NCBI GenBank assembly: GCA_964658305.1
Contig: OZ210885.1
Coordinates: 8,370,001 to 8,434,000 of the forward strand
DNA from: Leptogorgia sarmentosa
Lineage: Eukaryota
Length of the DNA: 64,000 nucleotides
Reading direction: 5' to 3'
Shown here: one piece after another, positions 2,728 to 59,921 of the stretch
Layout of the letters: the number at the start of each line of letters is the position of its first letter
Numbering within the stretch: position 1 is the first letter of the stretch
Program-made: the position numbers and the translations under genes
Notes under the pieces: generated by a model
Databases searched by the model: none
What the model saw: the letters and a program-made list of their open reading frames with translations, nothing else
Told to the model about the DNA's origin: nothing

Positions 2728-3053
2728 TCAACCTTTCGTTTGGAGTTGTTTTGAATGGGAGGATAACTTATTAAGACGAAGGAAGCAGACCCGACCTCCT
2801 TCCAGGCCAACACAAACCATTCCATGTGAGCCACATGCGATGGCTAAAACATACCGGTCGAAATGAAACTCTTCAACACACTCTCCATTTGGTAGGTTCC
2901 ACAGTTTCAGCGTCTTGTCATAATCCGAGCATGACAACAGTGATTCACTTCCAGGCGCTAATGCCAACGCTCTGATCCAGCCAGCATTTTCAATTGGAAA
3001 TCTATAGAGAACCTTTCCAGTAATGAAGTCCTCAATCACCAAAGAACCATGAC
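2728..3053 (-). CDS. Exon 16 (terminal): WD40 and stop
   Basis: WIRALALAPGSESLLSCSDYDKTLKLWNL...VGLEGGRVCFLRL...KG*. The GxxxGxVxxL ending is typical of STAND-WD40 proteins. Confidence 0.88.
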
Positions 3054-6000: not shown

Positions 6001-9000
6001 TTTAAAAATGTTCAAACTTTCCGCGCGATTAATTGGTAGATAACATAGTTTCACGTCTAACAGGAGGTGAGGTGTTACCGTGAGATTACGCCTACGCGGT
6101 TGAAAGCGGGGTGTCATCTACTGTGCTTCTTGTTAAGACAGGTTTGTTGATGTAACATAAAAGGTCTGATCAACTGTATTAATTTTTTTTTGTAACTTTT
6201 GATGATTTCATCACAGAACTCGCCGATGGCTTAGATTATATTCGCATATTTTATGCTTCGAAAGGTTCTTAATTGCAATAATCTTGCGTACAGTAGCTTG
6301 ACGTCGCGTGCTTTGCTGCATGATTCTTAGGCGGGAATTTTGCTGGCAGCGCTAGAGACAGAGCAAATTTCGTTCCTAGTTAATATGATGTTTCTTTGAT
6401 AACGACCGAAGGAACTAAGCAGAAAAAATCGTTGTCATACCGCGAATAAAATTTTGGACCTTCGTTTTGTATTGCATGTTCAGGCAGTTTCTACCACTGT
6501 AACATGCACGGTTTTTGTTTTACAACTCTTGATGAATTTGAGTAGAATTTCCAACAGGCCTATAAAGTTAATAGAGAGGCTAAGATACCCCGGTTCCGGT
6601 TTACGGGTACGGCTGCATTTCCCGTTCCAGTACCCGTAAACCGGAACCGGGGTATCGTTACCTCTCAAATAACCACAGCTGGCCCAGGTTGCTCGCGCCC
6701 TCCTGGAAATTACTGAAAATAATAGGAGGAGACATTGCGAACAGACGAGGCATATGTCACACAAACTATCCTCGATTTTTCGCAATTAAATGTATCTCTT
6801 TCGAAATTAATCGATATTCCCAGCAAGAAGGATCCCGTGTAACTATCAAAATAATGATGCTTTTATCAAATAGCGTAAATTCGCTCTAAAATTCTCGAAG
6901 GAATGACAAAATTCGGCCAATATATATCCGCGTACCCGCTTTGCTGTGCGATAGACCGGACGTCGTTGAGCTACTCATTGAGTTCAAACCTGATTGGGCC
7001 GCGAATATTTAACAGTTATTCTGCGAACTCGAGTCGTATATGCTATTTCAGATTCATTTCAGAATCTTATTAAAATAAATGCACAATATACCTTCCTTTA
7101 GAACTTACTTAAGATTTCGTTGAAATCCAGCATAAAACAAGGACAATATACTCATTAAAATTGTTAGCTACACGTTCGTTATATTTATAGTTCACAAATC
7201 GCAATGACTGCGGCCGAAACGCCGGAAGTAAAATGTGCTTGACTAAAACATCAAAGGCTGCGACGTCAAATTATCCATAAAGTTACACCGATGTACCCAT
7301 TTATCAAGAAGCCGCCACTTTGCGACACCGTCGACGACAAAAGACACGGAGATGTTAAGACTCCGCTGGGTGGCTACGCCTACGTGGGCGGAGTAAAAAG
7401 GATTTCATTAAGTGCAAGTTTGACTTTGCCTGCTGTCACATGTACGCCCTGTGTTGGTGGCATTTCAAGTCTGCCGCGCTGTAATCTTAGAGGTCACTGG
7501 TATTATAAATGGCCTCAGGTCTCGCCCGGTGACGCTTTGCATCACTGTAGCGATAAATAATTTAATAACACAACATCGTCACGACCTTTTATTACGCGTT
7601 TGGTAGAGTTATCGTGGGCGTTGTAGTTCATGACAACAATTCTATTTTTGTAGCATGTGCGCATGCTAATGTTTTTCTTCTAGTTTTCCAATGTTATTCA
7701 CTCGAACCCTTCAGCTAATACTCGATGAATTACGCGATCACACCTTGTGCAATTGAGAATGGAAAATAAAATAATAACAGTTAAATTATTTACCTAATAT
7801 AGCCACAAGGTTGCCAGAATTGTTAATCCTTAAAACTTTCTCAGTGGGGAAAGAACTGCTGTACTCTTCCTTGGTGTCGTTCAAGTTCCACTTTGCGATT
7901 CTCTCTTCAGCTGTACCATCATAATATTTGAACAGATGAACACAAACAAGGGAGTTCTGGACCACGCGCATTGTTTTAATTCTCTCCATGTACCCCAACA
8001 TCCACATATCTTCGAGTTCGTAAGTATGCACGACTCCGGTGGCATTTATCCGATCAATCTGTCAAAATAATCAAACCACTGCTCAAAATAACGTCCTTCC
8101 ATTAAATACTTTCCCCACAAAATGATATGATCCAGTTATAAATGCTTATTATTACGTATTTTATATTCGAGAATTCCTTTCGAACTATTTTCTATTATTC
8201 TTGCTTGGTTTCGTCAAACAGCTCAATATAAAGTAGCAAAATGAACAAAAAATCAGCCGTCAGAATCGAAGTTCTTGAATTTATAATATGTATTTAAAAT
8301 GAATGAAGGCAAGAGGTAAATCGTGGAGGGGGATGACACAAGCATCGAGAGGGGGGAGGATGACACAAGTCACCAACTGTTTCGGCTGAAAGGATGAATA
8401 TTGTGTCGTCCCCTAACGTTTTAAGTCATGATTCACCGAGGATTTACATTTATATTTATCAAGTATAGTGTCCTTTATGTGCAGGAAACATTGTCTGTAA
8501 ATCTAATTCAACTGTTGCGTATATAGGCCGTCGGATGAGCGGGCAAAAGATGCTTAGAAAACGAATTCCGTTGCACCCCTCGCGGAACTACATAATTTTC
8601 ACATGAATGAATAGATAAAAACTTACTTTATCAGAATTCGTTGCTCCCCAAACGAAACAGGTGCACAATTTGGAGAAAAATGCTCCCAAAGTTTGCTAAT
8701 TCCGCGCTTTAAAATATTCGAACCGCCATTGTTTTGGTAGCAAATACGCATGCGCACGTCTGCTAAATTTGCACTGCGCAGGCGCACAAGAAAAATGGCT
8801 TTCCCCTGTGGGTTTTCCCTTGGTTTTTTCCACTGAGCTGTTATATTATCTTAGTACATCGCAGCGGTTTTCTTCGATTTTACAATTAACAGAAACGAAA
8901 ATTGAATTGAATTTTAACATTTATTTCTACTTATTAATATAAAATCCTAATTGGAATGGTTTTAACTCTCTATTAATGAGCTTAAGATGAGAAAGTAGAG

Positions 9001-12000: not shown

Positions 12001-15000
12001 TATCTTTTCGATGCTCATCCTACGGCCTAATACCTGCTTTCTTGGTTTAAGTATCTAACTTGCCGAACTCGCTTGGCAGCAAGCCTCAATCAAACCATAG
12101 ATTCATTGATTTATTTTTCCAACAAGTTATTTAGTTGCTCTGCTTTTTGAGTGTAAAAATCGGCTAAAACAGTTTTCGTGGGTTCCATTGAAAGCCGATT
12201 AACTAAAAGTAGCGAAAAACGCGTTTTTGACTTTGTTCTTGCAAGCAGAGCATTTTCCATCGTAAAACTGCAGTTTTTAATCAAAGTCAGTCGTGTTTCC
12301 TATCAAATTAGCTACTCAGCGAAACACAAGCTTTCTCATCCTGCATAAATCTCTGGGATAGATACGAGAGCAGTGATACATTTGGCCAGCATGCATTCCC
12401 AAGCTTAGCGCCGCTTCGCGGTAAAATTCGAAATTCTTGCTCAGTGGCTTTCTTCTTTGGTCTGCAAGTACCTTAAAGATTGCTTTTAAAATGTCTGACG
12501 CACGAGTAAACCTTAGTTTTGACCATTGCATGAGTTATGTCCGCAGAGATTGCATTTTTTATTGCGTAACTGTGACTCTGTTAGTTAACCGCAGAACGTT
12601 ACGCAGGCTCAAATGTCCGCAATTTCTGGGCATGATTTCATCCCCCGAACACGTGCTGAGTTGCATGCATTGCGAATTACTCGATTACTCGATGAATTTT
12701 GCCGCTCATCACACAAAAAAGGAACGTTTGGAAATCTAGGTTAAGGTTTATTAGTAGTAGTTTATTTTTTTTGCCAATTAATTGATATGTCCAATTTACA
12801 ATGTAAAGGAAGAAAGAAAGGAAATTATGGCGAGCAGACATAAACGGTTTATTTTTCGCTTCTGCCTCAAGAAGGATGATCTTTTTATCATAGTTTGTTC
12901 AATTGAATGCAATGACAAGCACACGAGTTCAAAGAAAAGAACAGAAGTCTTCGACAGTAGCTCTTCACAGGGAATTGCTTCACTTGTACAATAATTTAGA
13001 ACGAAAGTCCTTTTGCTCGAAACGTTGAGTTCTCTTTTTTTCAGGTATCGTGCTCACCATTTGACGAGTTGAACTAATTGATTGTGACCACACGTCAGAT
13101 CTAATCTACTAGATGCCATATCTTGGTAACAATGATATGAACACACCATGTAATATTATTCATATTTTCAACGTGTACGGAGCAATGCGACACATCAGCT
13201 AAACATGGACAGAAATATGCAACATTGGAGTCCACGCGCTCAGTTCATTTCACATTGACTGCAATTAAGCGGCACTAATAACCAGTAGAAAACAACCTTT
13301 GCGAATAGAATCGAGCAAAACCTCGCCAATTTACGACAGCTTTAGGACTTGGCAAAGTTATTTTACTGTTTTCAAAATGTATTTTCTACAAAAAACAGAT
13401 GATGATGGGAAAAAGAAGTTGTGGTGCTTTGGCATCTCGAAATTTGTTTGGTGTATGCCCTGAAATTGAGGATTTTTTCCGTAGAAAATATTCCTGAAAT
13501 AGAGGATTTTTTCCGTAGAAAATGTTACTTATCACGACTATTATTAACTAATGTATAATACATTGCAAGCTGTTAGACTTTTGTTCAAGGACGAGATTTA
13601 ATTTAATTTAATTGTTTTAACCTGATCGCTCGATTTCTAGCCCATGTTATTCGCAAATATATATTTTAATAAAAACTGCCTTCGCATACTTTAATTTTGA
13701 AGGTTTCGCCGTCTTATACAAAATAGTATGGAATTTTTTCATATTCATTTTAAAATTATAGCTTAGGGTTATTGCGTCATCGCGGCTCGCACATTTCTGG
13801 TAATGAAACAAAAATCCAGCAAGAAAAAAACTATTAATTTGGTTGATATCTTCCAGACATGGTGTGAACAATGGGGATTTATTCCGAATTTGCCTCCCAA
13901 TTTTCAAAATGAAGATTGGGACGAAGTTAATTTGCAATAATTCTAGAAACGCTTCATAATGTGTATGTGCATGTGCTGTTGTACATCATGAAGCAGCTCA
14001 ACCTAACAAGTAACACGTCCAAAAATAACATTTGAAAATCTCGTTTGGAAAATGATACACATACCTTTTTGTCAGAAGCAATTATGATATCATCCGAGCA
14101 GGGCACGAATTCTAACGCGATAATGGGATCCGAACAAATGTTGTCATGTGACCATATTAACGTCGGCAAGTTTTCTTCAACATTCCAAAGCTTCACAGAC
14201 CCACCGATGGACCCCGATGCAAAGCGACGTGAAAGATCATGACCTCCTAGCTCGCCTTTAACTTGAGAAATGGCATCCTTGTGTGCTAGGAATTTCAACT
14301 GCGATTTATTGTTAACATGGAAGCATAACAGTTCTCCGTCATCACAACCAAGCAATGCATATTGTGACCCAAGAGCAGTAATGCAAGTTACTTTAACATC
14401 TGGTTGACTCAAATTAATGCTGGTCTCGATATCATTAAGAGTTCTTAGTTCGATCCTGTTTACCTCGTTAACAAAAACGAAACGGACATCATCACTTAAT
14501 AAGCAGACAAAACGTATGGCGCCTCCAGATTCGGTCTTTGCGAATCGAACATTTTTAGAACACTCTATGTCGACCAGCGACAATGTTCCCGAACTGCTTC
14601 CAGACAAAGCAAATTTCCCATTTGATGTGATGTCAATTGCTGTAACTATCGAGTCGTCAGGGTGACCTGCATGAAGGAAGTAAAATGTTTATTTGAAGTA
14701 TTCAAGTATGCAACGCTTCAGCGGTGTAGCCTGCCAATCATTGAAAAATATCCTTCCGACGACAAGTATAACCTTTACAGGTGCAGCAACAGACATTTTC
14801 TTCTAATCCAGGTAGGAAAATGCATCGCTGATATCGAAAACGCAAAAATAAGTCGTTCACTGTTGTGAATAAAAGACTAGTATACTGGAATGAATGCCTT
14901 TTGCCATTACAGTCATTTTGCCCTCGCAGACGGAGAGAACGATTTTAACTTCGTCAAAAATCCGTCGCGCAGGCACGCCAAGAATGTTGAACGTAGTTCC

Positions 15001-42000: not shown

Positions 42001-45000
42001 GTTTCTCTTGCACGTTGGCACAACACACCTCACTTCTTTGAAACCAGAACTGAAACTTCTGTCTCGTCTTCGTCTTTGTTTGTCGTCATCACCCTTTTCA
42101 GACTTGTTTGTTCCAAGACCACCAGTTTCTTCCTTGGCCTCGTCCATAATTTGAACCCTAAGCTCAACCCATTCGACTAGGGTCTCAAATGTGTCCTCTT
42201 TGGAGTGCTCCATAAGCCATGCTTTATAACGCTGTACGTCTTCTTCGGTTAATTTTTCCTTACTTGTCATATTTAGACTCTGCCCCAGTAGATCTCCCTG
42301 TGAACTACAGGTGTCCTTTAGTACAATTAGTGTTCTGTCCAACACATTTGAGAATTCTTCTAACTCCTTCAGATTTTTCTGCTGCAATTTCTTCCAATTC
42401 TTCAAGACGGTTAGAGTCTTGATTTGAAGCCTCCGTTGGCCCCCGTATTTCTTTTCTAATTTTTCTTTAGCTCTGTCATATGCGTTGATGGTAAATCCTA
42501 GATCTTTAACCAATTTGAGTGCATTCCCTCTCAGGCTGCTTTGTAAACGTAACATTTTTTCATTCACGGGCATATTTGTTTGGTCAACGGCAGACATAAA
42601 TGCAGCTTTCCATTGTTCATATGCTGTTTTGTCTTCACCATCAAATGTTGGCAAGTCCACACCTTTCAATTTAATAGGTGCCACCCATTGTGGCGCCTGA
42701 ATGTTAAGGCTAGTGCAGGTAGGAGAAGGTTGCCATGTGGATGGAATGTGAGTAGGTTGTGCTTTCATAATTCTGTTAGGTTCCGGGTTATGCTGAGGTA
42801 TGTTGGCCATAACACGTAAGCTATCAGTTGTAGCTTGCTCAGTAACCTCTCTACATAAATTGTTATGGTCGCTTAACTCTGAATCTGGAACAGGGTGTTG
42901 AGGGAACTGGGTTGGGGTTCTCATAGAATCGGGCTGAACTGGATCTTTGCCCTCATGATGTCGTAAATACTTATTTGTGATAAAGGGTGGAAAACCTGGT
43001 TCCAAAACTTGATGCTGTGATTGGCTTCCAAGATTTTTGTCAAGCTGAGGAGGAGAGTCGGTGGGATCTGGGGCTTGTTGAAGTAATTCACTTGGGTATG
43101 GTGGGTTAGTGGCGTCTGGGACTTGTTGTAGTATGCTCGTGGTGAATGTTTCTACAGACTGATTTAAATTTTTTGAAGGACTGCTTATCTGCGATCTAGT
43201 GTTAATGATGGATGCAATCTTACTTGCTTCGGTCGTTCTTTGTTTTGCCAGTTCCAGCTCTGCTCTCTTTTGATGAAGTTCTTCTTCTTTTTTTCTTTCT
43301 TCTTCTTGGAGTTCCATTATCCTTCGATTGGCTTCATCTATATCTGATTGTTGTTGATACTCGTACTCCGATTGTAATGAGCCGCGACTTTTCGTTGACT
43401 CGTCCCAGTCCACTGAACGAGCTAGTGATTCTATTTCTCCTTGCTCTAACCGGTCTCTTAAATGTATATCTGCAGTTTCAATAATATTATCTACTTGTTC
43501 CCCGATTTCTTCAATCTCTTTGTCTAACTTTCCAACTTCTACTTCATTCTCTTCCTCATTGTCAAAAATATATAGTTCCTTTAAGTTGTTTATTAACTTC
43601 TCTATAATGTTAAACTCCGATTTTATATTATTTATACAGCGCCTAATTCCGTTCTTACTCGCAGTTTTCACTGATATCATCTCCTGTAATTTGTTTCTTC
43701 GTCTTGTTAATCTTGCTTTCGCGTTCTTCTTTTCTCGTTTTAGTCGTTCTAATTTCTGTAACGTTTCCGCCATCGTGGATAATTTTGAAGCTTTTACTTA
43801 ACTTTTATGCTTAAATTCGATAAAGGGATCCGGCTCGAAGGACCAATTGTTCTCCCCAACTGGAGAAGTATTGCCGGTTCAAGACAAATACAAAAAATAA
43901 AACCTCCAACACGGTTCTAGACAAAAAATATAATAATAAACCTCCAACACGGTTTTTTAACATTGCTCATCCCCTTTTGAGCCCGCGAAAATGTCAACAT
44001 ATACTTCATGTAAATATGTTATTATTGACTGTCCGTAACACCTTTCAAAGTATGGAGGTGATCCGCGTAAGTTTCTTAAAACTCTAAATCCTTCATCCAA
44101 ATTTATTAACTTGTTGACACAACTTTCTGATTTTAAAATTTTAACTTTAGTTTTACAGTTACGCAATGATAAATTGCACTTCCTTGAAATTGCCTGATCT
44201 GTAATTTCTTTAGTTCGTTAAAAATGTTTGGGACAGACTGCGCGAGTTTTCTATCTTTGCTTCGCAATCCCATCTACATATAGTGCTATAATGAACAAGC
44301 ATTCCTTCTCCTGGTGCAAAACGTATTATTCTGTCACCATCTTGGGTAATATCGGTTTCTTGTAATAATGTATCATAAGACCTGATGACCGTTCAGTCGC
44401 TGCACACCACTCATCATCTGTATCATCATCAATCAAGTCATTCTCTCAACTACTTCTTGACCGTGAGCGTTCACATTTTCTGAAGTGTTCATTCCATCCA
44501 TGGAAGTAATTTGCCACCACTCCTCTTCATTATTATCCACTTGATTTGATACATAACTGTCCATTACTTGTATTCCTTCGTTTTTAAATAATTCACTGGT
44601 ACGAACGAAGAATTGACTGAGCTGCTTCTGAAATTTTACTAATAGTATTCTGAAATTGGTAATGGTGCAAATACTAATACCTTTTAAGACGTGAGGTTGG
44701 GCGTGGTTAAAACGTGAGACGTACTCAATACTTCATATAAGCTTTCATGACTATGGCGCATTCCGGAATCCGCGCGATCATATCAAATTGCATAAGGAGT
44801 TGAAACTTGACGACATATGATATCGCATGTCATTGGGTCTTTAAAATAGAGACAGCGCTTTGCGATTGTTTGAGAAAAATGTGGCTCTCTAAAAACCAAA
44901 TTTACTCTTTTCAAAACCATATTATAATAATATATTTATATACACTATGTTCTGTCCATTCATGCAGCATTTGCCTGGACGCTGAAGTGTATGATCGGTA

Positions 45001-48000
45001 TGTGTGTAGGTTCAAAACAGAATATTTTAAACTATATACGATTTCGTTTGTTTTGTCTCGCGCTTAATAAACGCACAAATCCATTTTATTACATGCTACA
45101 AAATCTATTTTCCTGGGATTGAGAGTTTCAACCATTCTGTGCGGCAAATTGATACAATTGTCGTGAAAAGGATATCAATTTTGTGTGCGTAATACAAAAA
45201 TATACAAATTTTGAAAACTTCACAGGGGTATATTCCTCGCATTTTATACCATTTCGCAACCAAACTCTGCAATCTTACTAACTTTGGAATGCTCTTTAAC
45301 GCTGTTATTTTGAATTGTATATTATTTCGAGGTTTTTGAAAATTTTCTCTATTATGTAAGCGGTCCATTGACGCCCTTTTTACAATGCCAGGAAGCATAA
45401 AACATCGCTTCGCAAAACAAAAGTAGAAAGACTGTTAAAGTTCTGTGAATTCGTAAAGCACCGATCTCATGCTTAACACCAAAAAATACTTTACTCCAAT
45501 ACAACAGAACGTTACTTCCTACAGTTTTGTAAATTCTTAATATTATTGATTATTTAATGTCTAACTGAATTTGATTCCAATCTCCAATAATATATGGTGT
45601 GGGTGAATGACAGTCACTGTGAAAATTGACGGATCGCAAGCATACTTTGTGTGAATCATGGGCGTGTATTACCCATGGAGACGCATCATATTATGTAAGA
45701 ACCGCGTATACATACGAACTAGCTGGTTAACAACAGAGAATCTTTGTTTTCGGATAGCATGCCTAATGGAGTATTTATAAAGATAGGCATAACATTCATG
45801 AAGTAATACTTCGCGTTATATAGTGTGGTACCAATCCAAAACAATTGCCATTCATCTACATGCAAGCGTACTTGGGCAGTGGTGGTAGCCGTTTCGATGT
45901 ATCGAGCAAAGACCCTTAGTCGTTAATTAGTAGTTGAGTCGGGGGAAAACACAAGGGTTTTTATATTAGTGAATATATGGAAACCAAGTAAAAACCAATC
46001 GGATGGATTTGATACACCAGTTTTCGAAAGCCTTCGCCAGAAATGTGGACTCTTACGTATCGTGTAGGCAGTGAAACAAAATTTAGCAAAAAAAGAAAGT
46101 AATTACCTAACAGCTGTGGACCAATAGAATGCAAATTCTTCTCGATAACCGCGAAAGACCGCATCAACGACGTCTTGAGCAGTTCGATTTCTTTCGAGGG
46201 CTGGTCCAGAAAACGAAAATCTGACATTAAGAAGGGGAGATCGAATTGATTCACCTTTTGATAAAGCCAGTCAAAATTGAAGAACAGTTTATGTAGTTCA
46301 TCAAATTGCTCGGAGGAGTGGAGGTGATAGGTCAGGTACTTGAAATAATAATCCTTGTTGCCTTCAAATTTTCCCCAATCACCGTTCTCGCAATGACCAC
46401 GAAGTGCCTCCACGAACAAACACTGGACAGAACTTAGTTTGCCTCCCATTTTTGCACGTGCAAAACCCAAAAGGAGATCGTGGAGACGGTAGGTCTTCTT
46501 TCCATGTAAATCAGATCCTGAAAATTAGCGTCATAAGGCGAATTTCAATTATTAAGTGTAAAATTTTGGTTCGTGATCGCTTTCTTTTGAAATGCTTGCA
46601 ATTTAATGTTAATGAGAATCGTTGACTGTTTGTATTTCAAAATAAAGCGTTCGCTAAAAGTCGATCGCGCGCCATTTCGCACTGAATTAAATTCTGCCGT
46701 TAGAGAACATAGTCACATATGGTGATTCGAAACGTTTTTGTACAGGACACTAGAGCAGTCTGGGACTGCAGTCAGGCTATAGTACAGTAATTTTTCAGAT
46801 TTAGTATACTCCAGGGCGATGGAAGTATTTTCCATTCAATTCCATTTGTTACTCATCTAGCAATGCCAGAGGAAAACACGGAAAATATTGGGCAAATGAA
46901 CGGGCAAATTTGGCTTGCCCACATATGAGTCAACATATGATTATAGCTGAAAATTAATTTCCTTAGGCTTGTTTGCAATTGACGTTGGTTTGATTAAATG
47001 TTCAGCCTAACAACGTGTTGACAGTTAATATACAGCTTTCGCAAAAGGAGCTGTAGTAAAAAAATATTTCAGAAACTTCTCGTCGTAAGCGTGAATTTCA
47101 TTTCATTATGGTGCATGAAGCAACAGACAAATTTAGCGATCGCAAAAGTTCAAAAATAAGACAACAAGCACAAAACTAACATCATAGTTGGAAACAGCGT
47201 GCTGAAATTAGTATGAAAGCAAAGTTTGAAGAATAGAAATGATAAAATGGGGAAATTGTGCCCATGCAAATTTAGCACAATTTACATACTATTTATGACG
47301 CACAAGTAAGTTAATACACATTATCGTCTGAAATGGATATAATTTACTTTGTGCTGATAAAATAGTACACAAAATGAATGTGTCTGGCAATGATATTCCC
47401 ATTTTATGACATTTCTTCTTTAAACTTAGCAATTATGGTAATTTTTGCACGCTGTTTCCAACTGTGGCGATAGATTTTTGTCTATTATCATGCACCCTGT
47501 CTTCATTTACCTTGTTGAATCATCGACTTCTTTTCGAGCTCATCAAGTATACGTCTTCCTTCACGACGGCTGCACGAAGTTCTTCCGGCTACTTTGGAAG
47601 ACCAAAACAGCTCAAGAATGTCTAATGGTACATCCGTATCTTCTGGAAATAAAGCGAAATCTAGAAACTTTTCTCGTATTTCTTCGTCCAAATGTTGAAA
47701 GCTGGCGTTAATGGCTGTTAAGACGTTATCGTAAGGATAAGCTTTGGCGGGATATATTGAACGTAATTTTACCAAGTCTGCTTTTTTGAGGTCATTTAAA
47801 ACGTCTTCCCAGTCTTGTTCGTCGCGAGTGTCGGCTAAACTTGAACCCACAAGGGACAGAGCTAGCGGTAGATCGCCACAATGGTTTAACATTTCCTCTA
47901 TAATTCGCCGCATGTTTGAGCTAAACTCGGACTGCTCGTCCTCGGTGACTTGGGCGCTTTGATACAAGAGCTTGTAAGATCCAGTCCGTTTTAAAAAATT

Positions 48001-51000
48001 GAGTTTATACAAAGCAGAACCTCGTAAACCGCGAACAACTTCAGAATTCCTTGTAGTTATTAATAATTGGCATTTTCCAGAGAGATGATCAAATACAGAA
48101 GCGTGGTTTACACTCCAAACATCATCAAGAATCACCAAGCAATCTTTTTCACTCTGCAATACATACAAAACTGCTTTACATACTGTCGCTGTGCTGATGC
48201 TTATCGAGTTTCTTGTCGCATTGGTAAGATCATAGGCGTACGGGCACATTTTTTTGGGTGGGGCTGGGCTGAATTTGCCCGAATTACATGACGTCATAGA
48301 TTTCATGACGTCATCATAATATTATATAATCTGAGAATACTATAAATGAAAAGCTTTCCTTTGAAGATATAAAAAGAAATATGTCGTCCCTAGCCATTTC
48401 AATTATAAGCTAAATATATTCATTACGATTTACAGAGAAAGAGAAAGTTACTAGCGTAACAACATTTTATCTAATCACCAGACCGTCGCTGCCCGAATGA
48501 CAAGACAATTTTTGCCCGAATAGATGAATTCTCAAAAAATTCGAGGGGGCTGCAGCCCCCCCAGCCCCCCCCCCCCCCCCCCCCCTCGTACGCCTATGGG
48601 TAAGATTAACTGGATCGAAGCTGAAGCAACGTTGCCACTGCTTCAGAATTATCAATAGATGGGTAGCCAACCGGTAATTGGAGAAGGCACAATCATATAT
48701 CCGCGTTTACAAAGTTCAAAGACACTAGATTTCGAAAAAGTCATTAAGAATACGAATATACATGAATATGATCCCCGCGCATTATCGGGCTATGTATGGT
48801 ACTGATTAAAAGGGCGACCCTCACCTAGTGTATCGTCGTCTTTGTCATAGGCATACTGTAAGTGGTGAAAAGCTTACAGTGTGTTCGTTACTTTGCAACG
48901 AAAAAACCTGATATCCATCTCATCACGCTAATCACTTTCTCGGTTTTCCTCTTATGGCGGAATCAGTGGGAGTTTACATAACGCGCTATTTGCATCACCA
49001 GTAACGTAACAATGATTTTGTGTAATAACGCATCATGAGTATTACAAAAAGTTAAAATAATACACACATACCGTGTTTGCTGTGACCCAGGATTGCGCTG
49101 CCCGGATGTCAGTGAACGAGGCTTCGCCACCAAGAACTTTTATGAGCAGGTTAATGAGTGATAAGCAGTCAGGAGTTTCTCCAATGTCAAGCCATATTAC
49201 CTGACGAGATTCATTGGCAGCCCAAGCGACAGCCAGAGCTAAGATGGTCTTACCCAGACCCCCCATACCACGAATACCAACGACGTCGCCGCTACGATTC
49301 CCGACCACACCAACTCGATTATTTCCTTGTGTAAGTAGTTTCAATATGTCGTTCACTTCTGATGGTCTTTCCACCATGTCACGAGGTAGATTGCGTAATC
49401 CATACGCAACTACAATACAAAATAAACGGAATATGTCTAATATCTACAATCCCGTGCCAAAATGAGACTTTAGCTACTTCAAACATTTTTCTCATATTCA
49501 CACATGAATTTAACCAGATCTTCTTCAATTGGTTTTAACATTCCCCCCAGTGGCGTAACGGAGGGGTGTCATGGTGTCCAGTGACAGGGGGCCCCCGAAC
49601 TTTAGGGGCCCCCGACAAAATGAACATAAAAAATTGATAGCACATTTCTGGGGAATTAAAATACGAAAAACAGGCAGATAGGCAGGTGCCGGTGGAGTTG
49701 CCTATTAATGTGATTATGTTATCATTATGCAAAAAACAAAAATACTACGCAGCCTGCAACCTCCTGGTTTCCTCCCACAGAGGAGGGACAGGGACTTTTT
49801 AATAATTGGGAGTTATGGTGTATCCGTTACGGCGTTACCTGTTCTTTGGAAGAGAGAAGCGAAATTCATTAAATTCAAATTCGGGTTCGAGTCTATTCTG
49901 TAACAAAGTGAGGTTTGCCGTTGTGTAGACATAAGTGGTAAATTCAGCCTATTAATTAGTGGAGCAAAGGGGGCCCCAAAGTAGTCGACTGTCGGAGGGC
50001 CCCCAGAGGTTGCGTTCCGTCACTGATTTCCCCCCTTCCCCCTTTAACAATTCTGCCTCGACGGATCTTTTTGAGCAAACCAGATGGCGTGATATCGTTG
50101 TTACAAGATTGTTTCAGGGGGGAATGGGGGACAAGTAGTCAGTCTGAACAATTTTTGCACGCGATTGATCCCGTGCAAAAATAATGAGACTTTTTCTCAT
50201 TTCATCAGGTGGCAAATATAAGAAATTTCTGAAATCCAAATCTGACCTATTCTCACATGGAATCATGCTGACCTTCAAAAATAATGTGGCAGATAACTTA
50301 AAAGAACTGTTTGTTGATATTTACTCAATGAACGAGGTCAATCCGACGAATAACATAAGCTTTCAACCTGGCTCTTTGAGAAAAGACAAATTGTTGCATG
50401 GCGAACAAATCATGTCCGGAGCTGATGGAAGAGTCATAGAGCGTGATAGTGCTAAATCTGAATGCGAGGTAGTAACACATACTTCGGACATTTCAAATCT
50501 TGAAGAACTACAGGAAATTGTTGACCGATCTCATGAAGTGTGTTGCCCCGAAGTGGCAACATTAACGTGTCCGTTGAAAGAATTGATTTTTATAAAAAGC
50601 AATTCTAGTCTGTTGGAAAAGACCCCCTTGTTTTTTAACAAAATTCTAATTTAATTTGTTTTTGTTGATTCCACATATATAAGTACCCAAGCAATGTGTA
50701 AGTAACCAAAAACGTTTTACCTTAAGCCGCTTAACGAAGTTGAGAGCGATTTAAAAATTGTCTTTTGATACATCCTGTATATATTAACGTAACATTTTAG
50801 TTACGCTATCTCGTGCCATTGTCCATATTTTAAAAGGCATTGCATGTTAATTGCTCAGGTGATTAGAAATATATTTTGATTTGCTGACTTTATAAAATGC
50901 CGTGAATCTCATTATTTTGAGCCGTGTTGAAATTAAAAACTACTGCATTGTGGTGCATACGCATCTATGCAAGTGTTTGTTGGAAATATTAAATCTGTGC

Positions 51001-54000
51001 GTTATTCTTTGAGAGTGAGCAGAGCTTTTGCTGTTTATTGATGTTGTTATCCGTTATACCTAAACTGTAGCTACTGTTTGAAACATGTTATCATGAATTT
51101 ATTAAACTTGTTGTCACGAACTATTCCAGAGGGGGAGAAGAAATATGAATTACAGGGTCGCAGGGCTTGCCCATGCATAGAAAGTTGCCATTGAATATAG
51201 AATAAAATGTTTGCATGCTACAAAGATATAGATGAAAATTAACATAAGAGTGCAATAGAATAAAACGTATGATACAATTACGCTCTTCCTGTTCTATTAT
51301 ACTTTCGCAGGTTGGAACTTGTACACAAAAATCTTGTATAAAACTTATCAGGAACTTTTCACAACAACATTCGATCCCGATTTACCCTGTACTTATTAAT
51401 ATATTCTTTAGATAGGACGTCTCCTTGTCAATCCTAATTTTATCTATTTAAATGCTTGTATAAAAATATTATAATAGTTACCCTAGTAGTTTGTATATTT
51501 TTGTGCATTGGATCCAGTTCCGATCCAATCTCGTGTATTTATTATGTTTGTTACTGAATTAAATTCAATATCATAAATCAAAATGATAATGAGGCACTTT
51601 AGGACATAAATCAAGAGAAGGAGCATTTAACTACAATAAGCAACATTTAAGCATTCTTGTCGCAATTGAGCTGCGTCAACTTTTCACGAGCGTTTTTTAT
51701 TTTGCTGTGACCTACGCAGTTAACCCGCCCAACATTAAAATTCAATTTTAGTGATGATGAGTGCGACAGCGCGTACTGCACTGCCAATGCTTTCGGATTC
51801 CCACTAAATCTGGGAAGTGTTAGAAGACATATTGCATTCCTGTTGCCGTTTACTCTAACGAGATATTTTCCTACAAGAAATTCTTAGAAACAGAACGTTG
51901 AAGACCGGGAAGGTTCCTGGGGGGACAAATTTTGAAAATTGAATGGCTGCCTGATACTCTGTAAATTTTCCTGCATAATATAATCTGCATAAATAGATTC
52001 CCATCTTTCCTAGTTAATTGAAACACTACCTTTTTTCTCTGCAAAATCTGAATGCTCCGTCCTCGGCTTTTTCTGACGACATTCGATTTCATCTGTTTTC
52101 TCCGCCAGACGTTTAAGCTCCATTGAATTCTCAGCTGCAGACCTTTCAACCTCTGTAATTTTGCGAAGCAGTGTGGATTGTATGTTATCGAGTTTCTCCA
52201 TCACTGGATTTATCTGAATTGATAAAATTGATTTAGTAATATTCAATTTACGGGCTGAAACAAATCTGAAATCACTCTCAACTTCACAAAGCGGTTTAAG
52301 GTGTGTGATGTAATAATAGTTTATGGTTTCGAGTGCAATTTGAAAAAAACATGCACGAGTGAGTTTTTCAAAGACATTCAAATTGCACGAGTCCAAAGGA
52401 CGAGTGTAATTTGAAGTCTTTGACAAACTCACGAGTGTATGTTTTTCCAAATAGCATGAGAATTTAAGTAGATTTTACTTGTCTCGCTTTGTTCGACCGC
52501 TAATATACGGAGATGTTTTGCTTGTCCACCGAGCACTTGCTTGAACGAAGAGAAATCTCTGTCTCGTATTATAAAAAGGTTGTCATCATCGACTGCTGTT
52601 AATATCACTTTTAAGCTGTCTGCTTCATATTCATCGCCGTTTCTTTTTTAATTCACAGTTTTCGTTCAGCATAAAAAGAATCGAGCAAAATATATAATCT
52701 AACACCTCTTGCGGAATATTTTGTACTCGCGCTGTATTTTCTTTTCAATGCACCACTTTCTCCGCACAATCAACCACAAGAATAGATATCTTTCCTGGTA
52801 TTTTCATTTTTCAAACTATTTTTAAGCCCCTCTATCATTTGTCTGTTGCCAAAAAATCTAGAGGCAGCCATTTTTTCATCCTCGAATAATTTCATATTTT
52901 GTTATTGTTCGCCAGAAATGGCTTAATCTGATTGGATAGCTTTGTAATCTCAGCCAATCATAGGACATTAACATGAATTTTCTTTTTTGGCACTGTATTT
53001 CCTTAAAATTGCACTGCTCTCAGCCAATCAGAATCGAGAATTTTTTTCATGTATATTAGATTAGAGATTAAGATGAGACAATATATATGAGCCGAGGACG
53101 ACCTGACAAGTAAAGAGGGCAGGGCCACAAGGATTCGAGAAGAATTAGTTGGAATTGAAAGCGTGTATCGAAAACAATGAATCTTAGGTGACTGAAAACA
53201 ATGAATCTTAGGCGAGATGAGTAAAGTAAAATTGTTAGTTCTTGAATGAAAAAAAGGTGACGAAGAGTAACTAGCGTGGGGTGAACTAAGCTCCAAAACT
53301 GAAAAGAATCAACTGCGGTCTGATATCCTGAAGTTTAAAGACAGTCCTTCTATATTTGGAGCTAGTGCTTTGGCAAACTGAAAATAAAACTCCCAGTCGA
53401 TAAACGATGGAGTTATAACTCTCGCCCAGCAAAGGCGAGAAACCGAAGCCAGTCGCTTATAGAGTTAATTCCCAAATTAAATAGAATTACTGAAGAACTT
53501 CAAGGCAATTACCGAGCAAGTCAAGAATCCTAGGGACAGAAACTACGCATTGTGGCTAGCTAAAGAGAGAAGACGGAAACTCTGTGGACTTGTTTTGTTT
53601 GAACAGCGACGCACGCCCGTGTTCTTAACCGTCTGAGCTTTATCAATATTTTCCTGACTTTAATGGTTGGGATTTTAGGGAAAGGGAAAATTGCTTCGCC
53701 GATCTTTTACGAGCTACCCACATGCGTACCTATTTTTTCCTCTCTTATAAATTGGCCCTTTTTTCTCAAAATTTTCGAATTGCCATCGAATAATTTTTAC
53801 GTCACTGTGAGGACGAAATATTCCAATGCTTAGTCGACACAGATGTAAAGTCGAATACGAGTTAAAAGTTTTGTGACGACATTATACATAAGGTCTATTG
53901 AAATCTGATATGCAAGTTTCCTAGTTTGTAAACTTTTCAGAAATTTATAGTTCAACGTTGGAATAGCAATTTTGCAAGGAAAAATAATTGTTATCTATCA

Positions 54001-56144
54001 AAATTTAGGTTTATCTTGCCTATGAGAATGCCTCAATTGTTTTGCCTAATGGGTTGTCCCAGCCCCTTGGGCTAGTTTTTTTCCCCCTAAAAGAGTATTT
54101 TATTTATCAGTAATAATGTATTTAATAGAGTATTTAAAATATCTAAAAGAGTATTTAATTTATCAGTATGTAGTGTGTTTTTTTTATCAGTACACGCTTC
54201 GTTCTAAGTATTCTATTGCAAACGTGTCCCCAAAAAAGTATGCACATGTTTGACTTGGAACGTTTAACGGGTAAAGCAAAACTCATAAAAACAGCATTAT
54301 TGAAAAAAAGCACAGATTGCGTTCCCACGCTGAAAATTTGCACTCGCTCGCATTTGAAACATGTCTTATATTAATTTGAACAGCGTCTTCCTACTTCTTC
54401 AACGACTGTTAAATGAAACATCAAAAGTTCCTCAAACCTTTGTGGCGTCCAAATCGTAGTTTTTGATACAACGGCAAAGTTCAGCTACACTTTCTGCAAT
54501 TAGTTTTGCGTGGCGACCATCAACAAGAATGTCTGGAAATCATGCAGAAAATTTATCTTCAGTATCACAAACACTATAAATCTACCGCTGCTAATGCGCG
54601 TAGCACGAAGGATACATAAAAAAAAGCATGCCTTGCTGTCCATATATTTGCTAAGCATGGTCTGCTGTGGTTATTAGCAAACGTCAATATGCGCCCAGTG
54701 TAGTAGATAGGAGATAACAACATCAGCAAGCAGCACATGTCCTACCCACAACCTAAACAATGCAAATAGGTTGGACGTTTTGAGTAAAGTAGATTTTTTG
54801 CATGATATAGACATGCAAAAATTTCGAAATAGTACAATCCAGAGCAACAGCGTTAAAGAGTATCACAAAGTTAGTAAAACTGTAAAGTCTGGTTGAGAAA
54901 TGTTTTAAAATGCGAAAAATATGACCCTGTAAAGTTTTCAAATTTTGTATATTTTAGTATTACCCATGCATTTATATCCTTATCGAGAAAAGTCTATCAA
55001 TTTTGCGTGTCTAATACTAAAATGAAAAAATTGGCAAAATTGCGTTAAACATTCCCGACTTTTGAATGATTGAAGTTTTGAACACAAATGTCCAACTGGA
55101 ATTAGTACGATTTACGAAGTCTAATTCATGTGAAAATTTTGATTTTATGCATATGTCAGCATATATTAGTCGTACTATACTGTATATCATGTTGTATACA
55201 GTATTAAAGGCATTTAACTTCTGCACTTATATGAAGGTCTAAAAATAAATCACTGTCACCAATTCAACACTAGATTTCTATGTAAAGTTTCAAAGTATAG
55301 CTACACTATTGGAGAATTTAATTTTTTTTACCTGTTCGACCCCATATAATTTCAACGATTGATCGTATTGAGAATCGCATTGAATTGTATATATGGTAAT
55401 AAATGAATAAAATTGGATGATAATAATAATAATAAATGAATAATAAGAGAAATTCTTTCAACACATGGGGGTTTTCTTACCGGAGATAAAAAATGATCTG
55501 CGCAAAACATATTTAAAGGCATGATGAAATTCCGGCAATAATGCTAATAATACAGTACCTGTTTTATTCCAGAAATCTAGTTCATCACAAATTATTTTTT
55601 CGTCAGCTATTGGTAAATTTAATATTTTGACCAAAGATTCCATTCCTTGAAACGAGGCATTGAACATATGTACTGTCCATTCAGAGATGTTACAATGAGC
55701 CCATGGGTTTCTGATGTCCGACCGAACTTTGTTTGCTTCAGCTGAAGCACCCGAAGATACAAAAGGTGCTGCCTTGCCGATAATAGTCAAAAGAGCTGAC
55801 ATATCCATGGTTTCATCAAATCCAGTGAAATGTGCCATAAAGTCCGTGACGAATAGTTTCGCCAAAGAGACAGGATCTTTAACAGCATAATCATAAGCTG
55901 ATTTAGTACGCTTGTGGATAATGTTATTGTTAATGTTCTGATATTGTAGGTTATGTGTGGAAGGGGGTAATTTCTTCCTTCTGTATGCTGCGAAATCTTG
56001 CTTTTGAATTTCATCAGGTGGTTGGCATAAAGAATGATACCATTTCCCAAGTTCAGTGGCGACAACTTTCCTCAATGCAGGTGCAAGAACTTTGGTAAAG
56101 GCAATGCCAACTAAAACCCAATGTTGTTCTTCCTCTGATATCAT
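2728..56144 (-). CDS. Multi-exon gene (16 coding exons, ~1702 aa): putative HEPN-like N-terminal domain + coiled coil + NB-ARC + APAF-1-type helical domain + WD40 repeats (APAF-1-like STAND/NLR receptor lacking CARD)
   Basis: Exons 55559-56144, 54438-54532, 52030-52213, 49072-49409, 47511-48153, 46107-46517, 35687-35932, 31675-31887, 28854-29075, 25883-26126, 24296-24528, 21837-21934, 16126-16528, 14065-14666, 7794-8058 and 2728-3053. All introns are GT-AG and all phases match. Total 5109 nt, open to a TGA at 2728-2730. NB-ARC motifs and GH...WD/WN repeats are present. Confidence 0.85.
3488..3637. repeat. Imperfect palindromic element
   Basis: taatagaaattag...gtgcgggc / gcccgcac...ctaatttctatta. 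Confidence 0.55.
5452..5600. repeat. ~150-bp hairpin of the same element class
   Basis: aattattgaat...gtaggatatggggaattattcag...ctgaataattcctcatatcctac...attcaataatt. Confidence 0.7.
6572..6668. repeat. Palindromic mini-element
   Basis: gataccccggttccggtttacgggtac...gtacccgtaaaccggaaccggggtatc. Confidence 0.75.
7794..8058 (-). CDS. Exon 15: degenerate WD40
   Basis: IDRINATG...IAKWNLNDT...LRINNSGNLVAIL. Boundaries AG/GT, phase 0 to 1. Confidence 0.72.
10013..10097. mobile_element. 85-bp hAT-like mini-MITE
   Basis: cagtggcgtaac...gttacgccactg, with near-TSD aggatgct/aaggtgct. Confidence 0.7.
10470..10925. mobile_element. Hairpin-ended element of a different family, abutting the 10932 element
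   Basis: ~150-bp hairpin at 10476-10622, then tattatacc...ggtataata. A second internal hairpin lies at 10763-10820. Confidence 0.7.
10932..11634. mobile_element. Hairpin-ended element (Crypton-like), copy 1
   Basis: ~110-bp terminal hairpin followed by ttattatgtacacaagcactgga, whose inverse ends the element. A highly similar copy lies at 61183-61875 and a fragment near 7005-7045. Confidence 0.8.
14065..14666 (-). CDS. Exon 14: WD40
   Basis: GHPDDSIVTAIDITSNGKFALSGS...AHKDAISQV...FASGSIGGSVKLWNV. Phase 1 to 0. Confidence 0.88.
14893..15125. mobile_element. Diverged MITE
   Basis: Imperfect ~45-bp inverted ends (ttttgccattacagtcattttgccc / gggcaaagcgactgaaatggaaaa). Confidence 0.5.
16126..16528 (-). 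CDS. Exon 13: WD40
   Basis: MWNLSDG...IIGCEDNHVFIWDW...VISPDGKDLL. Phase 0 to 1. Confidence 0.85.
16596..18195 (+). mobile_element. Tc1/mariner-type fold-back element with ~550-bp inverted arms and a transposase remnant
   Basis: TA|cagtgcgacccacgg...ccgtgggtcgcactg|TA. The middle encodes the fragments LFTDE, TLDGPDDWSKGW, LIGPFRVPEG and NSPNLNPIENLW. Confidence 0.88.
18528..18950. repeat. Tandem repeat, ~146-150-bp unit, ~2.9 copies
   Basis: Units start at 18528, 18678 and 18824. Confidence 0.92.
20781..21389. mobile_element. TIR element (MITE)
   Basis: catggccagaaatgcgcgacagtcagc...gctgactgtcgtgcatttccggccatg. Confidence 0.65.
21837..21934 (-). CDS. Exon 12: WD40 (short; absent from the ORF track)
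   Basis: GDLEWAKHVAVSADDRYVVSLSKEWSSTKSSIK joins in frame to MWNL of the next exon. Phase 1 to 0. Confidence 0.75.
22577..23162. mobile_element. Tc1/mariner-type MITE, 586 bp with ~200-bp TIRs
   Basis: TA|cagggtgtctcaaaa...ttttgagacaccctg|TA. Confidence 0.9.
23730..23980. repeat. Diverged hairpin element
   Basis: ataaacaaataacttca...tgaagtaatttgtttatt inverted ends. Confidence 0.45.
24296..24528 (-). CDS. Exon 11: WD40
   Basis: VLTASLDGSIRVWNL...HSNDVTDIKI...SRDGTFEVWDL. Phase 2 to 1. Confidence 0.88.
25883..26126 (-). CDS. Exon 10: WD40
   Basis: LVSGSNDGTIKIWDL...LKGHESDVTSVAVS...YEGHTDRI. Phase 1 to 2. Confidence 0.9.
27708..28145. mobile_element. hAT-like MITE
   Basis: cagtggcgtagga...ttcgtatgcccttg. 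TSD tttcagag/tttcatag (7/8). Confidence 0.7.
28503..28586. mobile_element. 84-bp perfect palindrome MITE with TAG...CTA ends and a 9-bp TSD (Academ-like)
   Basis: No spacer and no mismatch. GGAAAGACA flanks both sides. Confidence 0.88.
28854..29075 (-). CDS. Exon 9: WD40
   Basis: LKMYCVSTG...DKTIKLWKADT...LVGHTDGVRCVVAT. Donor GTATGT. Confidence 0.88.
30767..31279. mobile_element. hAT-like MITE
   Basis: cagtggcgtaact...atttacgccattg. TSD is degraded. Confidence 0.6.
31675..31887 (-). CDS. Exon 8: WD40
   Basis: LRGHFVICLAVSQSGTILASGSSDGSTILW...VFIGTYD. Donor GTAAGC. Confidence 0.88.
33548..33815. repeat. Tandem duplication, ~151-bp period
   Basis: tatgctgaacaaaaaccaagcataaattgtgg... at 33548 and 33699. 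Confidence 0.88.
33999..35120. mobile_element. Tandem cluster of three hairpin-ended Crypton-like elements (33999-34437, 34440-35006, 35008-~35120)
   Basis: Each starts caattatt/cgga. The first two have a long hairpin, a ttattat.. inverted repeat and a ccaatca..ataataa end. The second contains the ORF start MAARFPELPEDELSCLLEEKNSDDTKKATKTAV. Confidence 0.72.
35687..35932 (-). CDS. Exon 7: end of helical domain and first WD40 repeat
   Basis: GRLLSYEEFPGIKTLL...VICGLLDGSITIFDLDT. Phase 1 to 1. Confidence 0.85.
37335..37527 (-). repeat. 3' LTR
   Basis: Matches the 5' LTR. Preceded on the minus strand by the polypurine tract GGAGGGGGA (37528-37536). Confidence 0.96.
37658..43773 (-). pseudogene. 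BEL/Pao gag-pol polyprotein, disrupted
   Basis: Gag LPTFDG, zinc knuckle CFKC..GH..C, protease MLDPCS, RT YVDD, RNase H FSDAS, integrase HHCC and D..SDNG..E, tail WPLGRI..G.DGLVR. Lesions: in-frame TAA at 41179, frameshifting deletion at ~39880, in-frame TAG at 39084, MITE at 37930-38097. Confidence 0.93.
37930..38097. mobile_element. 168-bp MITE inserted in the integrase C-terminal coding region
   Basis: ~59-bp TIRs (cgtcagctgaggattaacaagg...ccttgttaatcctcggctgacg) and AGTT duplicated on both sides. Removing it restores ...RVQQLINQVWKRW... Confidence 0.92.
43828..43845 (-). promoter_or_regulatory. Primer-binding site complementary to the tRNA-Tyr 3' end
   Basis: TGGTCCTTCGAGCCGGAT, 2 nt after the 5' LTR. 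It is complementary to ...CCGGCUCGAAGGACCA. Confidence 0.85.
43848..44040 (-). repeat. 5' LTR
   Basis: Direct repeat of 37335-37527 with one mismatch (agaagtattg vs agaattattg). Confidence 0.96.
45195..45310. repeat. Dispersed repeat with an inverted, diverged copy at ~54845-54955
   Basis: aatatacaaattttgaaaactt...ctctttaacgctgtt matches the reverse complement of aacagcgttaaagag...aagttttcaaattttgtatatt. Confidence 0.65.
46107..46517 (-). CDS. Exon 6: winged-helix LHD (MHD-equivalent) motif and APAF-1-like helical domain
   Basis: YRLHDLLL...DYYFKYLTYHL...FNFDWLYQKV...LMSDF. Phase 1 to 1. Confidence 0.9.
47511..48153 (-). CDS. Exon 5: NB-ARC Walker B, sensor 1, GxP(L) and RNBS-D-like motifs
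   Basis: CLVILDDVW, LLITTR, CGDLPLAL, FLDFALFPED. Phase 0 to 1. Confidence 0.93.
48231..48598. mobile_element. hAT-like MITE with perfect 8-bp TSD
   Basis: ggtaagat|cataggcgtacg...cgtacgcctatg|ggtaagat. Confidence 0.88.
49072..49409 (-). CDS. Exon 4: NB-ARC N-terminal part with Walker A
   Basis: LPRDMVERP...VVGIRGMGGLGKT (Walker A at 49246-49269)...VIWLDIG. Phase 1 to 0, donor GTATGT. Confidence 0.92.
49548..50025. mobile_element. hAT-like MITE
   Basis: cagtggcgtaacg...cgttccgtcactg. TSD attccccc/atttcccc (7/8). Confidence 0.75.
52030..52213 (-). CDS. Exon 3: predicted coiled coil
   Basis: INPVMEKLDNIQSTLLRKITEVERSAAENSMELKRLAEKTDEIE shows a heptad-like pattern. Boundaries AG/GT, phase 0 to 1. 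Confidence 0.7.
52311..53058. mobile_element. Hairpin-ended element (diverged)
   Basis: Hairpin at ~52340-52455 and a terminal ctcagccaatcagaatcgag...atgtatatta. Confidence 0.5.
54438..54532 (-). CDS. Exon 2 (linker; absent from the ORF track)
   Basis: tttccAG|(D)ILVDGRHAKLIAESVAELCRCIKNYDLDATK|GTttga. 95 nt, bridging phase 1 to phase 0 exactly as required. Confidence 0.65.
55559..56144 (-). CDS. Exon 1: N-terminal helical effector domain with HEPN-like Rx4H motif
   Basis: ORF MISEEEQHWVLVG...VRSDIRNPWAHCN...FWNKT. Donor GTACTG at 55558 (phase 1). Acceptor AG at 56152-56153, 7 nt before the ATG. Confidence 0.8.
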
Positions 56145-59871: not shown

Positions 59872-59921
59872 CAAAAACTTAGGTTGATTTCCACAAGAGG
59901 CGACCGGAGCAAAGATTGTTC
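59872..59921 (-). other. Candidate 5' non-coding exon of the STAND-WD40 gene
   Basis: tttctctAG acceptor and consensus GTAAGT donor around 50 nt. Splicing to 56151 would place an in-frame TGA just before the ATG at 56144. Speculative. Confidence 0.25.

Follow-up and report, generated by a model that had tools for sequence, protein, structure and literature searches.

A likely HEPN ribonuclease head on an intact, octocoral-type APAF-1-like STAND receptor gene of Leptogorgia sarmentosa

Animal receptors that join a HEPN domain to a STAND NTPase have been predicted since 2013, and corals and bivalves carry them in copy numbers of tens to hundreds. Additional file 16 of PMC10236652, as far as its rows are covered here (APAF 7/7, DUF4559 23/27, WD40 30/200 and NB-ARC 30/240), contains many DZIP3-like_HEPN,NACHT,WD40 and DZIP3-like_HEPN,NB-ARC,TPR proteins of stony corals, together with DUF4559,NACHT fusions and one DUF4559,NB-ARC protein; the 7/7 rows with an APAF-1 domain carry CARD/DEATH or DUF4062, and none of them carries HEPN. 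In the available parts of the respective papers, 83 HEPN-NACHT proteins are given for D. gigantea (PMC8260672) and more than 50 for the pearl oyster (PMC9646362), and CXorf38 is described as an active Swt1-like HEPN that is fused to NACHT and DEATH in cnidarians (PMC3710099). The available text of a recent preprint (bioRxiv 10.64898/2026.05.28.728550) gives R[DNH]xxxH as the consensus, RNEIMH as the motif of CXorf38 and D134 as its predicted catalytic residue, the activity being predicted only. Among the invertebrate paralogues of APAF-1 described in PMC2246300, the heads are CARD pairs, Death, DED or TIR, in every case adaptors, and human SAMD9 is presented as a tested STAND-like tRNA nuclease in PMC10246899; further context is provided by the accessible parts of PMC8195603 and bioRxiv 10.64898/2026.01.04.697583. 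The literature searched, mostly papers available without subscription, yielded no account of an APAF-1-type NB-ARC-WD40 protein with a HEPN, no functional test of animal HEPN-STAND receptors and, for the RNase activity of human CXorf38, only predictions.

The DNA analysed here, hereafter the window, is a stretch of 64,000 nucleotides from Leptogorgia sarmentosa (assembly GCA_964658305.1, contig OZ210885.1, positions 8,370,001 to 8,434,000). In an initial annotation made from the letters of this stretch, an animal sensor-RNase fusion of HEPN, STAND and WD40 parts was proposed. The architecture stands, whereas the concept can no longer be called new, as fusions of the HEPN-STAND-repeat class are already in print for corals (PMC10236652, PMC8260672, PMC3710099) and molluscs (PMC9646362), in the parts of these sources covered. 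What is new, in that none of it was found in the literature searched, is the HEPN on an APAF-1-type chassis, the traceable DED-to-HEPN swap and a HEPN branch invisible to Pfam. On balance, we consider it moderately probable that the gene encodes an intact, spliced, octocoral-type APAF-1-like STAND receptor and that its head, likely a CXorf38/Swt1-type HEPN RNase grafted by exon shuffling in place of tandem DEDs, makes it a ligand-gated RNase.

On the minus strand of the window, 16 coding exons lead from an ATG at 56144 to a TGA at 2728 (5109 nt, 1702 aa). They are listed below from the 5' end, together with a probable 5' exon and a retroelement.

59872..59921, minus strand: 5' exon of 50 nt, probably non-coding (preceded by AG and followed by GT; X4/X5 contigs have a loose end at 56152)
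55559..56144, minus strand: coding exon 1, aa 1-195, likely a divergent CXorf38/DUF4559/Swt1-like HEPN domain (homologues, AlphaFold2, dN/dS)
55695..55712, minus strand: R145-N-P-W-A-H150, HEPN R[NDH]xxxH motif, predicted active site (conservation)
54438..54532, minus strand: exon 2, aa 196-227, helical linker (joints 54532/55559 and 52213/54438 in X4 and X5; L002, L003)
52030..52213, minus strand: exon 3, aa 228-288, predicted coiled-coil linker (joint 49409/52030)
49072..49409, minus strand: exon 4, aa 289-401, start of NB-ARC, P-loop GMGGLGKT at aa 336 (Pfam, joints)
47511..48153, minus strand: exon 5, aa 402-615, NB-ARC LVILDDVW, ITTR and GDLPLAL plus winged helix (Pfam NB-ARC E 7.5e-20, PDB, joints)
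46107..46517, minus strand: exon 6, aa 616-752, RLHD motif and APAF-1 helical domain (Pfam APAF1_C E 2.1e-11; joint, loose end to exon 7)
37329..44040, minus strand: Bel/Pao LTR retroelement in intron 6 (Pfam DUF1759, RVT_1, Peptidase_A17, integrase, DUF5641; repeats)
35687..35932, minus strand: exon 7, aa 753-834, start of the WD40 region (tblastn with P0001; loose end)
31675..31887, minus strand: exon 8, aa 835-905, WD40 (Pfam, tblastn with P0001)
28854..29075, minus strand: exon 9, aa 906-979, WD40 (Pfam; loose end at 26128)
25883..26126, minus strand: exon 10, aa 980-1060, WD40 (Pfam; joint 24528/25883)
24296..24528, minus strand: exon 11, aa 1061-1138, WD40 (Pfam; joints)
21837..21934, minus strand: exon 12, aa 1139-1171, small WD40 exon (phase scan; joints on both sides)
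16126..16528, minus strand: exon 13, aa 1172-1305, WD40 (Pfam; run contigs)
14065..14666, minus strand: exon 14, aa 1306-1506, WD40 (Pfam; run contigs)
7794..8058, minus strand: exon 15, aa 1507-1594, divergent propeller blades (joint 8058/14065 in X6 only; 34% identity to P0285; no Pfam match with this exon alone)
2728..3053, minus strand: exon 16, aa 1595-1702 and the stop codon, WD40 (Pfam; 50% identity to P0285)

The exon chain was built from tblastn with P0001, the closest full-length relative, from manual reading of splice sites and from run contigs. The assembled 16-exon ORF has no internal stop, one terminal stop and GT-AG borders at 15/15 introns, and all motifs quoted for it in the initial annotation were reproduced on the minus strand of the window: RNPWAH at 55712, GMGGLGKT at 49269, LVILDDVW at 48138, ITTR at 48060, GDLPLAL at 47877 and LHD at 46485. 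The nearest named relatives come from Dendronephthya (an octocoral), Paramuricea and Xenia. A different model of exon 2, in which exon 1 leads straight into 52013-52474, was ruled out by tblastn and joints, giving the 95-nt exon at 54438-54532. At the 5' end, the loose end at 56152 shows 5/28 mismatches to 59872-59921 and 11 mismatches to the next-best place; splicing of this exon to 56151 puts an in-frame TGA ahead of the ATG at 56144 (Met1). The Bel/Pao element has an interrupted gag-pol frame and 199-nt terminal repeats (37329-37527 and 43842-44040) whose 98% identity suggests a recent insertion. Despite the insertion, a run-contig loose end at exon 6 matches exon 7.

Run contigs were compared over window positions 45500-56500 and 7000-26900, and those of X4, X5 and X6 join 9/15 introns at the predicted bases. 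Introns 1-5 are skipped exactly in X4 and X5, and introns 10, 11, 12 and 14 in X4/X5/X6, intron 14 in X6 only; at introns 6, 9 and 13, loose contig ends match the neighbouring exon, and for introns 7, 8 and 15 the evidence is colinearity with L002 and P0285. X4-X6 belong to one study and were treated as RNA from their intron-skipping joints alone; because these joints come from short contigs with 90-93% likeness and many variants, some of them may stem from paralogues or alleles. Contig depth in X4-X6 is several-fold higher over exon 14 (14065-14666), and the junction of exons 10 and 11 (24528/25883) occurs there in several sequence variants, which may point to paralogues of the WD40 sensor or to diversity among its alleles. 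X1/X2, otherwise with the even intron coverage of DNA, contain a low-depth joint at 49411/52027, near the removal of intron 3, which is possibly a processed copy or mixed material.

The joining of exon 1 to the NB-ARC exons deserves separate consideration, as the fusion could be an annotation artefact and exon 1 a separate upstream gene. No single X4/X5 contig spans exon 1 through NB-ARC, and many head homologues are called as stand-alone ORFs of ~200 aa, both of which would suit such an artefact. However, introns 1, 2 and 3, which lie between head and NB-ARC, are each joined in two runs (X4 and X5), and a relative's contig of 4084 nt (L002) is a single intronless ORF from the N-terminal HEPN domain into the WD40 region, L002/P0001 being 57% identical to the window protein over aa 2-1139. 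In another relative's contig (L003), the exon 1-2 junction is likewise present and spliced, so that exon 2 follows exon 1 in both contigs. Moreover, these short ORFs have the look of individual exons picked up by ORF calling on genomic DNA, L001 being an example. A separate upstream gene is therefore barely credible, and the splicing of head to NB-ARC that had been assumed from the letters holds.

The chassis behind the head is that of an APAF-1-like protein. In Pfam searches with single exons, the NB-ARC and APAF1_C (PF17908) matches listed above were obtained, as well as WD40 matches in 7 exon ORFs (exons 8-11, 13, 14 and 16). The NTPase motifs, at aa 336, 407, 433, 494 and 626, are all intact, and we take them to be the P-loop, Walker B, sensor, GxP and xHD of NB-ARC; Pfam and motif positions together confirm the complete NB-ARC motifs, the APAF-1-type helical domain and the long WD40 region proposed earlier. 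Over aa 287-1691, the window protein is 52.8% identical to an 'APAF-1-like' protein of Dendronephthya, and P0001 matches mouse and human APAF-1 at E of about 1e-53 to 1e-57 (best 5.6e-57). When exon 5 alone is searched against PDB sequences, plant ADR1 comes slightly ahead of APAF-1, so the label 'APAF-1-like' is owed to the helical domain and WD40. The WD40 region covers about aa 795-1690 and may be long enough for a third propeller.

The head (aa 1-195) has no direct Pfam, PDB-sequence or PADLOC match, whether the domain or its profiles are searched, and its identity was approached through relatives. Its homologues comprise 127 of near its length and 15 longer ones, and a search with the head-family profile gives 555 clusters at 50% identity. 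Among 76 relatives scanned with Pfam (E<1e-28 to the head-family profile), 5 pass the cut-off for DUF4559 (PF15112) and 1 that for HEPN_Swt1 (PF18731), the query itself having no match, and 29/76 match one or the other at E<=0.002. We take DUF4559 to be the Pfam name of CXorf38; the match of P0188 covers positions 5-204 of this profile, and the HEPN_Swt1 matches fall on the motif-bearing part of the head domain. DZIP3-like HEPN (PF18738) is absent from the 25 families listed for 70 close homologues, and its only match among the 76 relatives (P0138) falls outside the homologous domain. Atlas neighbours were sought with P0002 aa 8-200 in place of the window sequence; they reach a score of 0.96, and 11% of the members carry HEPN_DZIP3 or DUF4559, in mixed clusters.

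AlphaFold2 models of the head are confident all-helical bundles (pLDDT 93.0 and 96.7). A death fold at the N-terminus, whose absence had been noted in the initial annotation, was rejected, given helices of 15-36 residues and the HEPN motif in the model and the lack of a death-fold Pfam match in exons 1 and 3 or among the 25 families listed for the 70 homologues. Structure searches with the head returned helical bundles of several kinds: Foldseek gave no match at E<=0.001, its weak rows including Csm6 and AbiF; in VIA-align, the C-terminal domain of yeast Swt1 (4pqz) ranks 2nd and 4th with Z 7.1-7.3 (119/136 residues, rmsd 3.3), tied with acyl-CoA dehydrogenase and other unrelated bundles, all at Z<8, and Csm6 (Z 5.5, rmsd 5.1, 120 aligned) is at or below unrelated bundles; a second structure search gave mostly bromodomains. 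With structural matches this non-specific and a query that lacks a direct profile match, the head might be taken for some other helical bundle whose motif only resembles that of HEPN. Such a reading is highly improbable in view of the transitive Pfam passes to DUF4559 and HEPN_Swt1, the matches of the latter lying on the motif-bearing part, of the 60/70 close homologues that match HEPN_Swt1 at E<=1, and of the Atlas neighbours. The HEPN assignment made earlier is thus upheld by the 6/76 relatives that pass the cut-offs and by the agreeing Atlas neighbours, and the head is very probably a HEPN. It likely represents a divergent CXorf38/DUF4559 (Swt1-like) branch, judging from Pfam passes that are transitive via relatives.

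In shuffles of the 195 aa of the head, Rx4H is present in 19% and R[NDH]x3H in 3%, so that a bare Rx4H is weak evidence; what is not chance is the conservation of the motif across aligned homologues. As had been anticipated, R and H are kept: R145 and H150 are invariant in 70/70 close homologues, and among diverse homologues (alignment A3) R145 is found in 134/137, N146 in 131/137, H150 in 136/137 and D114, which may be equivalent to D134 of CXorf38, in 130/137. R and H are both present in 123/132 covering segments of the 50%-identity representatives. Many residues outside the motif, such as L97, N72, N74 and S116, are conserved as strongly as R and H, and conservation alone is hence no proof of catalysis. 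The dN/dS of exon 1 against L001-L003 is 0.22-0.32, which indicates purifying selection.

A HEPN fold could also be non-catalytic, and the head could then serve for RNA binding or as a homotypic adaptor which, like a DED, links the ring to other HEPN receptors. It occupies the exact slot of the DED/Death adaptors in sister proteins, the domain is found on many receptor types, and inactive Swt1-family HEPNs exist according to the part of PMC3710099 covered. However, the inactive members given there have lost the motif, whereas R, N and H are each kept here in at least 131/137 homologues. We consider a non-catalytic head rather unlikely and catalytic activity as an RNase probable.

The head domain is generally mobile, and the company it keeps is that of an effector. 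A STAND-type NTPase is present in 25/33 long representatives (nSTAND3 in 15, NB-ARC in 5, NACHT in 3 and another STAND-like NTPase in 2); the rest include 2 with ROCO, 1 with AIG1, 1 with kinase-KEN, 1 with RRM and 3 with repeats only, and WD40 at E<=1e-7 was found in none of the 33. Several individual proteins can be mentioned. P0238 combines a HEPN-like domain with a protein kinase and RNase L/KEN, that is, two predicted RNase domains in one protein; P0138 has the head domain followed by a DZIP3-like HEPN; and P0142 bears two copies of the head domain, a possible intramolecular HEPN pair. In P0167, P0184, P0174 and P0259, the domain lies C-terminal to ROCO GTPases, N-terminal to an AIG1 GTPase or after PARP14-like RRMs. 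The octocoral STAND-TPR-beta-helix(-MYND) receptors P0002-P0011 bear an unannotated HEPN head; similar NB-ARC,TPR,beta-helix,Zinc_finger entries appear without an N-terminal domain in the covered rows of PMC10236652, where the HEPN may have been missed.

The origin of the gene can be followed exon by exon. Among its 12 top NB-ARC relatives, 4 carry DED (P0286 and P0289 above the Pfam cut-off, P0285 and P0287 below it), 2 carry tandem Death domains (Xenia P0292, which was scanned, and P0293, near-identical by eye), 1 carries HEPN (P0001), 1 (P0290) has no called head but a linker like that of exons 2-3, and 4 lack their N-terminus. Identity to the DED protein P0285 is 0, 12 and 18% in exons 1-3 and 34-71% in exons 4-16, climbing from 18% to 71% across intron 3; identity to P0002, a HEPN-STAND-TPR-beta-helix-MYND protein, is 60, 28 and 26% in exons 1-3 and 7-25% in later exons. 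The switch in ancestry thus falls at the phase-1 intron 3, after exon 3. The gene looks chimeric, with exons 1-3 like octocoral HEPN-STAND-TPR receptors and exons 4-16 like octocoral DED/Death APAF-1-like proteins, and the simplest reading of these identities is that exons 1-3 moved from the HEPN receptor family onto a DED-APAF-1-like gene. The HEPN head was likely grafted by exon shuffling, displacing tandem DEDs. In the initial annotation, the head had been placed in the position of a CARD; since the closest chassis relatives bear tandem DED or Death, it is DEDs, not CARD, that would have been replaced.

Two trees bear on this origin. In the NB-ARC tree of 17 rows, drawn up with P0291, P0294 and distant plant and STAND rows left out and without a vertebrate APAF-1 row, a clade (98/94) made up of the window, P0001 and P0290 lies within a 100/100 DED/Death clade, with a DED protein outside; forcing the DED/Death rows and P0288 into one clade gives p-AU 0.033, for a group that was named after the tree was seen. 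In the HEPN tree of 34 rows, the window is nested among octocoral HEPN-STAND-beta-helix proteins (97/93), and the long-branch warnings concern other rows. P0290, annotated in Paramuricea as a 'WD repeat' model, falls beside the window in the NB-ARC tree and opens with the exon 2-3-like linker, so the annotation probably missed its HEPN exon. When prokaryote genomes were scanned with head patterns (A1), 24 pattern matches and no relative were obtained, which is weak evidence on a bacterial origin.

The sister proteins also allow the HEPN to be seen as an integrated decoy that baits pathogen anti-RNase proteins, the tripped NB-ARC signalling via DED/Death paralogues in a mixed ring. Octocorals do have relatives bearing DED or Death that are 53-66% identical in the NB-ARC-helical region, and the variant junction sequences suggest several copies. 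However, the N-terminal position is the effector slot of STAND proteins (PMC10246899, in the part covered), and the head is under purifying selection with its motif intact, whereas the C-terminal WD40 exons diverge more; a decoy is decidedly unlikely.

For the preferred reading, a ligand-gated RNase, a mechanism can be outlined by analogy with APAF-1, NLR and SAMD9. At rest, NB-ARC would be held closed by the WD40 propellers and the helical domain. A cytosolic danger or pathogen ligand would bind the propellers, nucleotide exchange would lead to ring assembly, and the coiled-coil linker of roughly 90 aa, which in P0001 has visible 7-residue repeats, would bring the HEPN heads together. The paired RNxxxH motifs might then form a composite active site cutting RNA (tRNA, rRNA or viral RNA), and the cell would shut down translation or die, with no caspases recruited. 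More tentatively, and with the balance leaning against it, one may think of an 'RNase apoptosome', in which one exon swap on the octocoral APAF-1-type wheel lets the trigger that has DED/Death sisters recruit caspases, possibly a mitochondrial-damage or pathogen signal, now switch on RNA cleavage. If true, the apoptosome chassis would here serve a death or antiviral pathway that is free of caspases and resembles bacterial Avs, and the CXorf38 HEPN family, which humans also carry, would have its first demonstrable activity.

The gene is an unusually clean test case, as its chassis is related to the APAF-1 switch, whose working is well understood, and natural controls exist in the sister proteins that combine this chassis with DED or Death heads. 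If RNase activity were shown, an apoptosome scaffold would prove able to drive a direct enzymatic output, and a function would be at hand for a large, mostly Pfam-invisible HEPN branch related to human CXorf38.

Among known systems, the closest are the cnidarian and mollusc HEPN-STAND receptors (DZIP3-like HEPN-NACHT-WD40/LRR, HEPN-NB-ARC-TPR and DUF4559-NACHT-ankyrin/LRR/TPR), which, in the parts of PMC10236652, PMC8260672, PMC9646362 and PMC3710099 covered, likewise have an N-terminal RNxxxH HEPN, a central STAND NTPase and C-terminal repeats, and for which the same role, RNA-targeting immunity, is proposed. The window gene differs from them in its NTPase part, an APAF-1-type NB-ARC with APAF-1 helical domain and WD40, and in a HEPN subfamily mostly invisible to Pfam. 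With the APAF-1/CED-4 apoptosome family, it has NB-ARC, winged helix, helical domain and WD40 in common; however, its head is a predicted enzyme, whereas that of APAF-1 is a death-fold adaptor, and its WD40 region of about 900 aa is longer than that of human APAF-1. The head resembles CXorf38/DUF4559 in RNxxxH, in a conserved upstream Asp (D114 in the window protein) and in the helical/coiled region that follows, but as a divergent branch, in which 5/76 relatives pass the Pfam cut-off and the query fails. Finally, SAMD9/9L (PMC10246899, in the part covered) and the bacterial antiviral STANDs (Avs) are likewise STAND-like sensors with an intrinsic N-terminal nuclease effector; their nuclease and sensor domains are different and have been shown by experiment, whereas the nuclease of the window gene is predicted from sequence.
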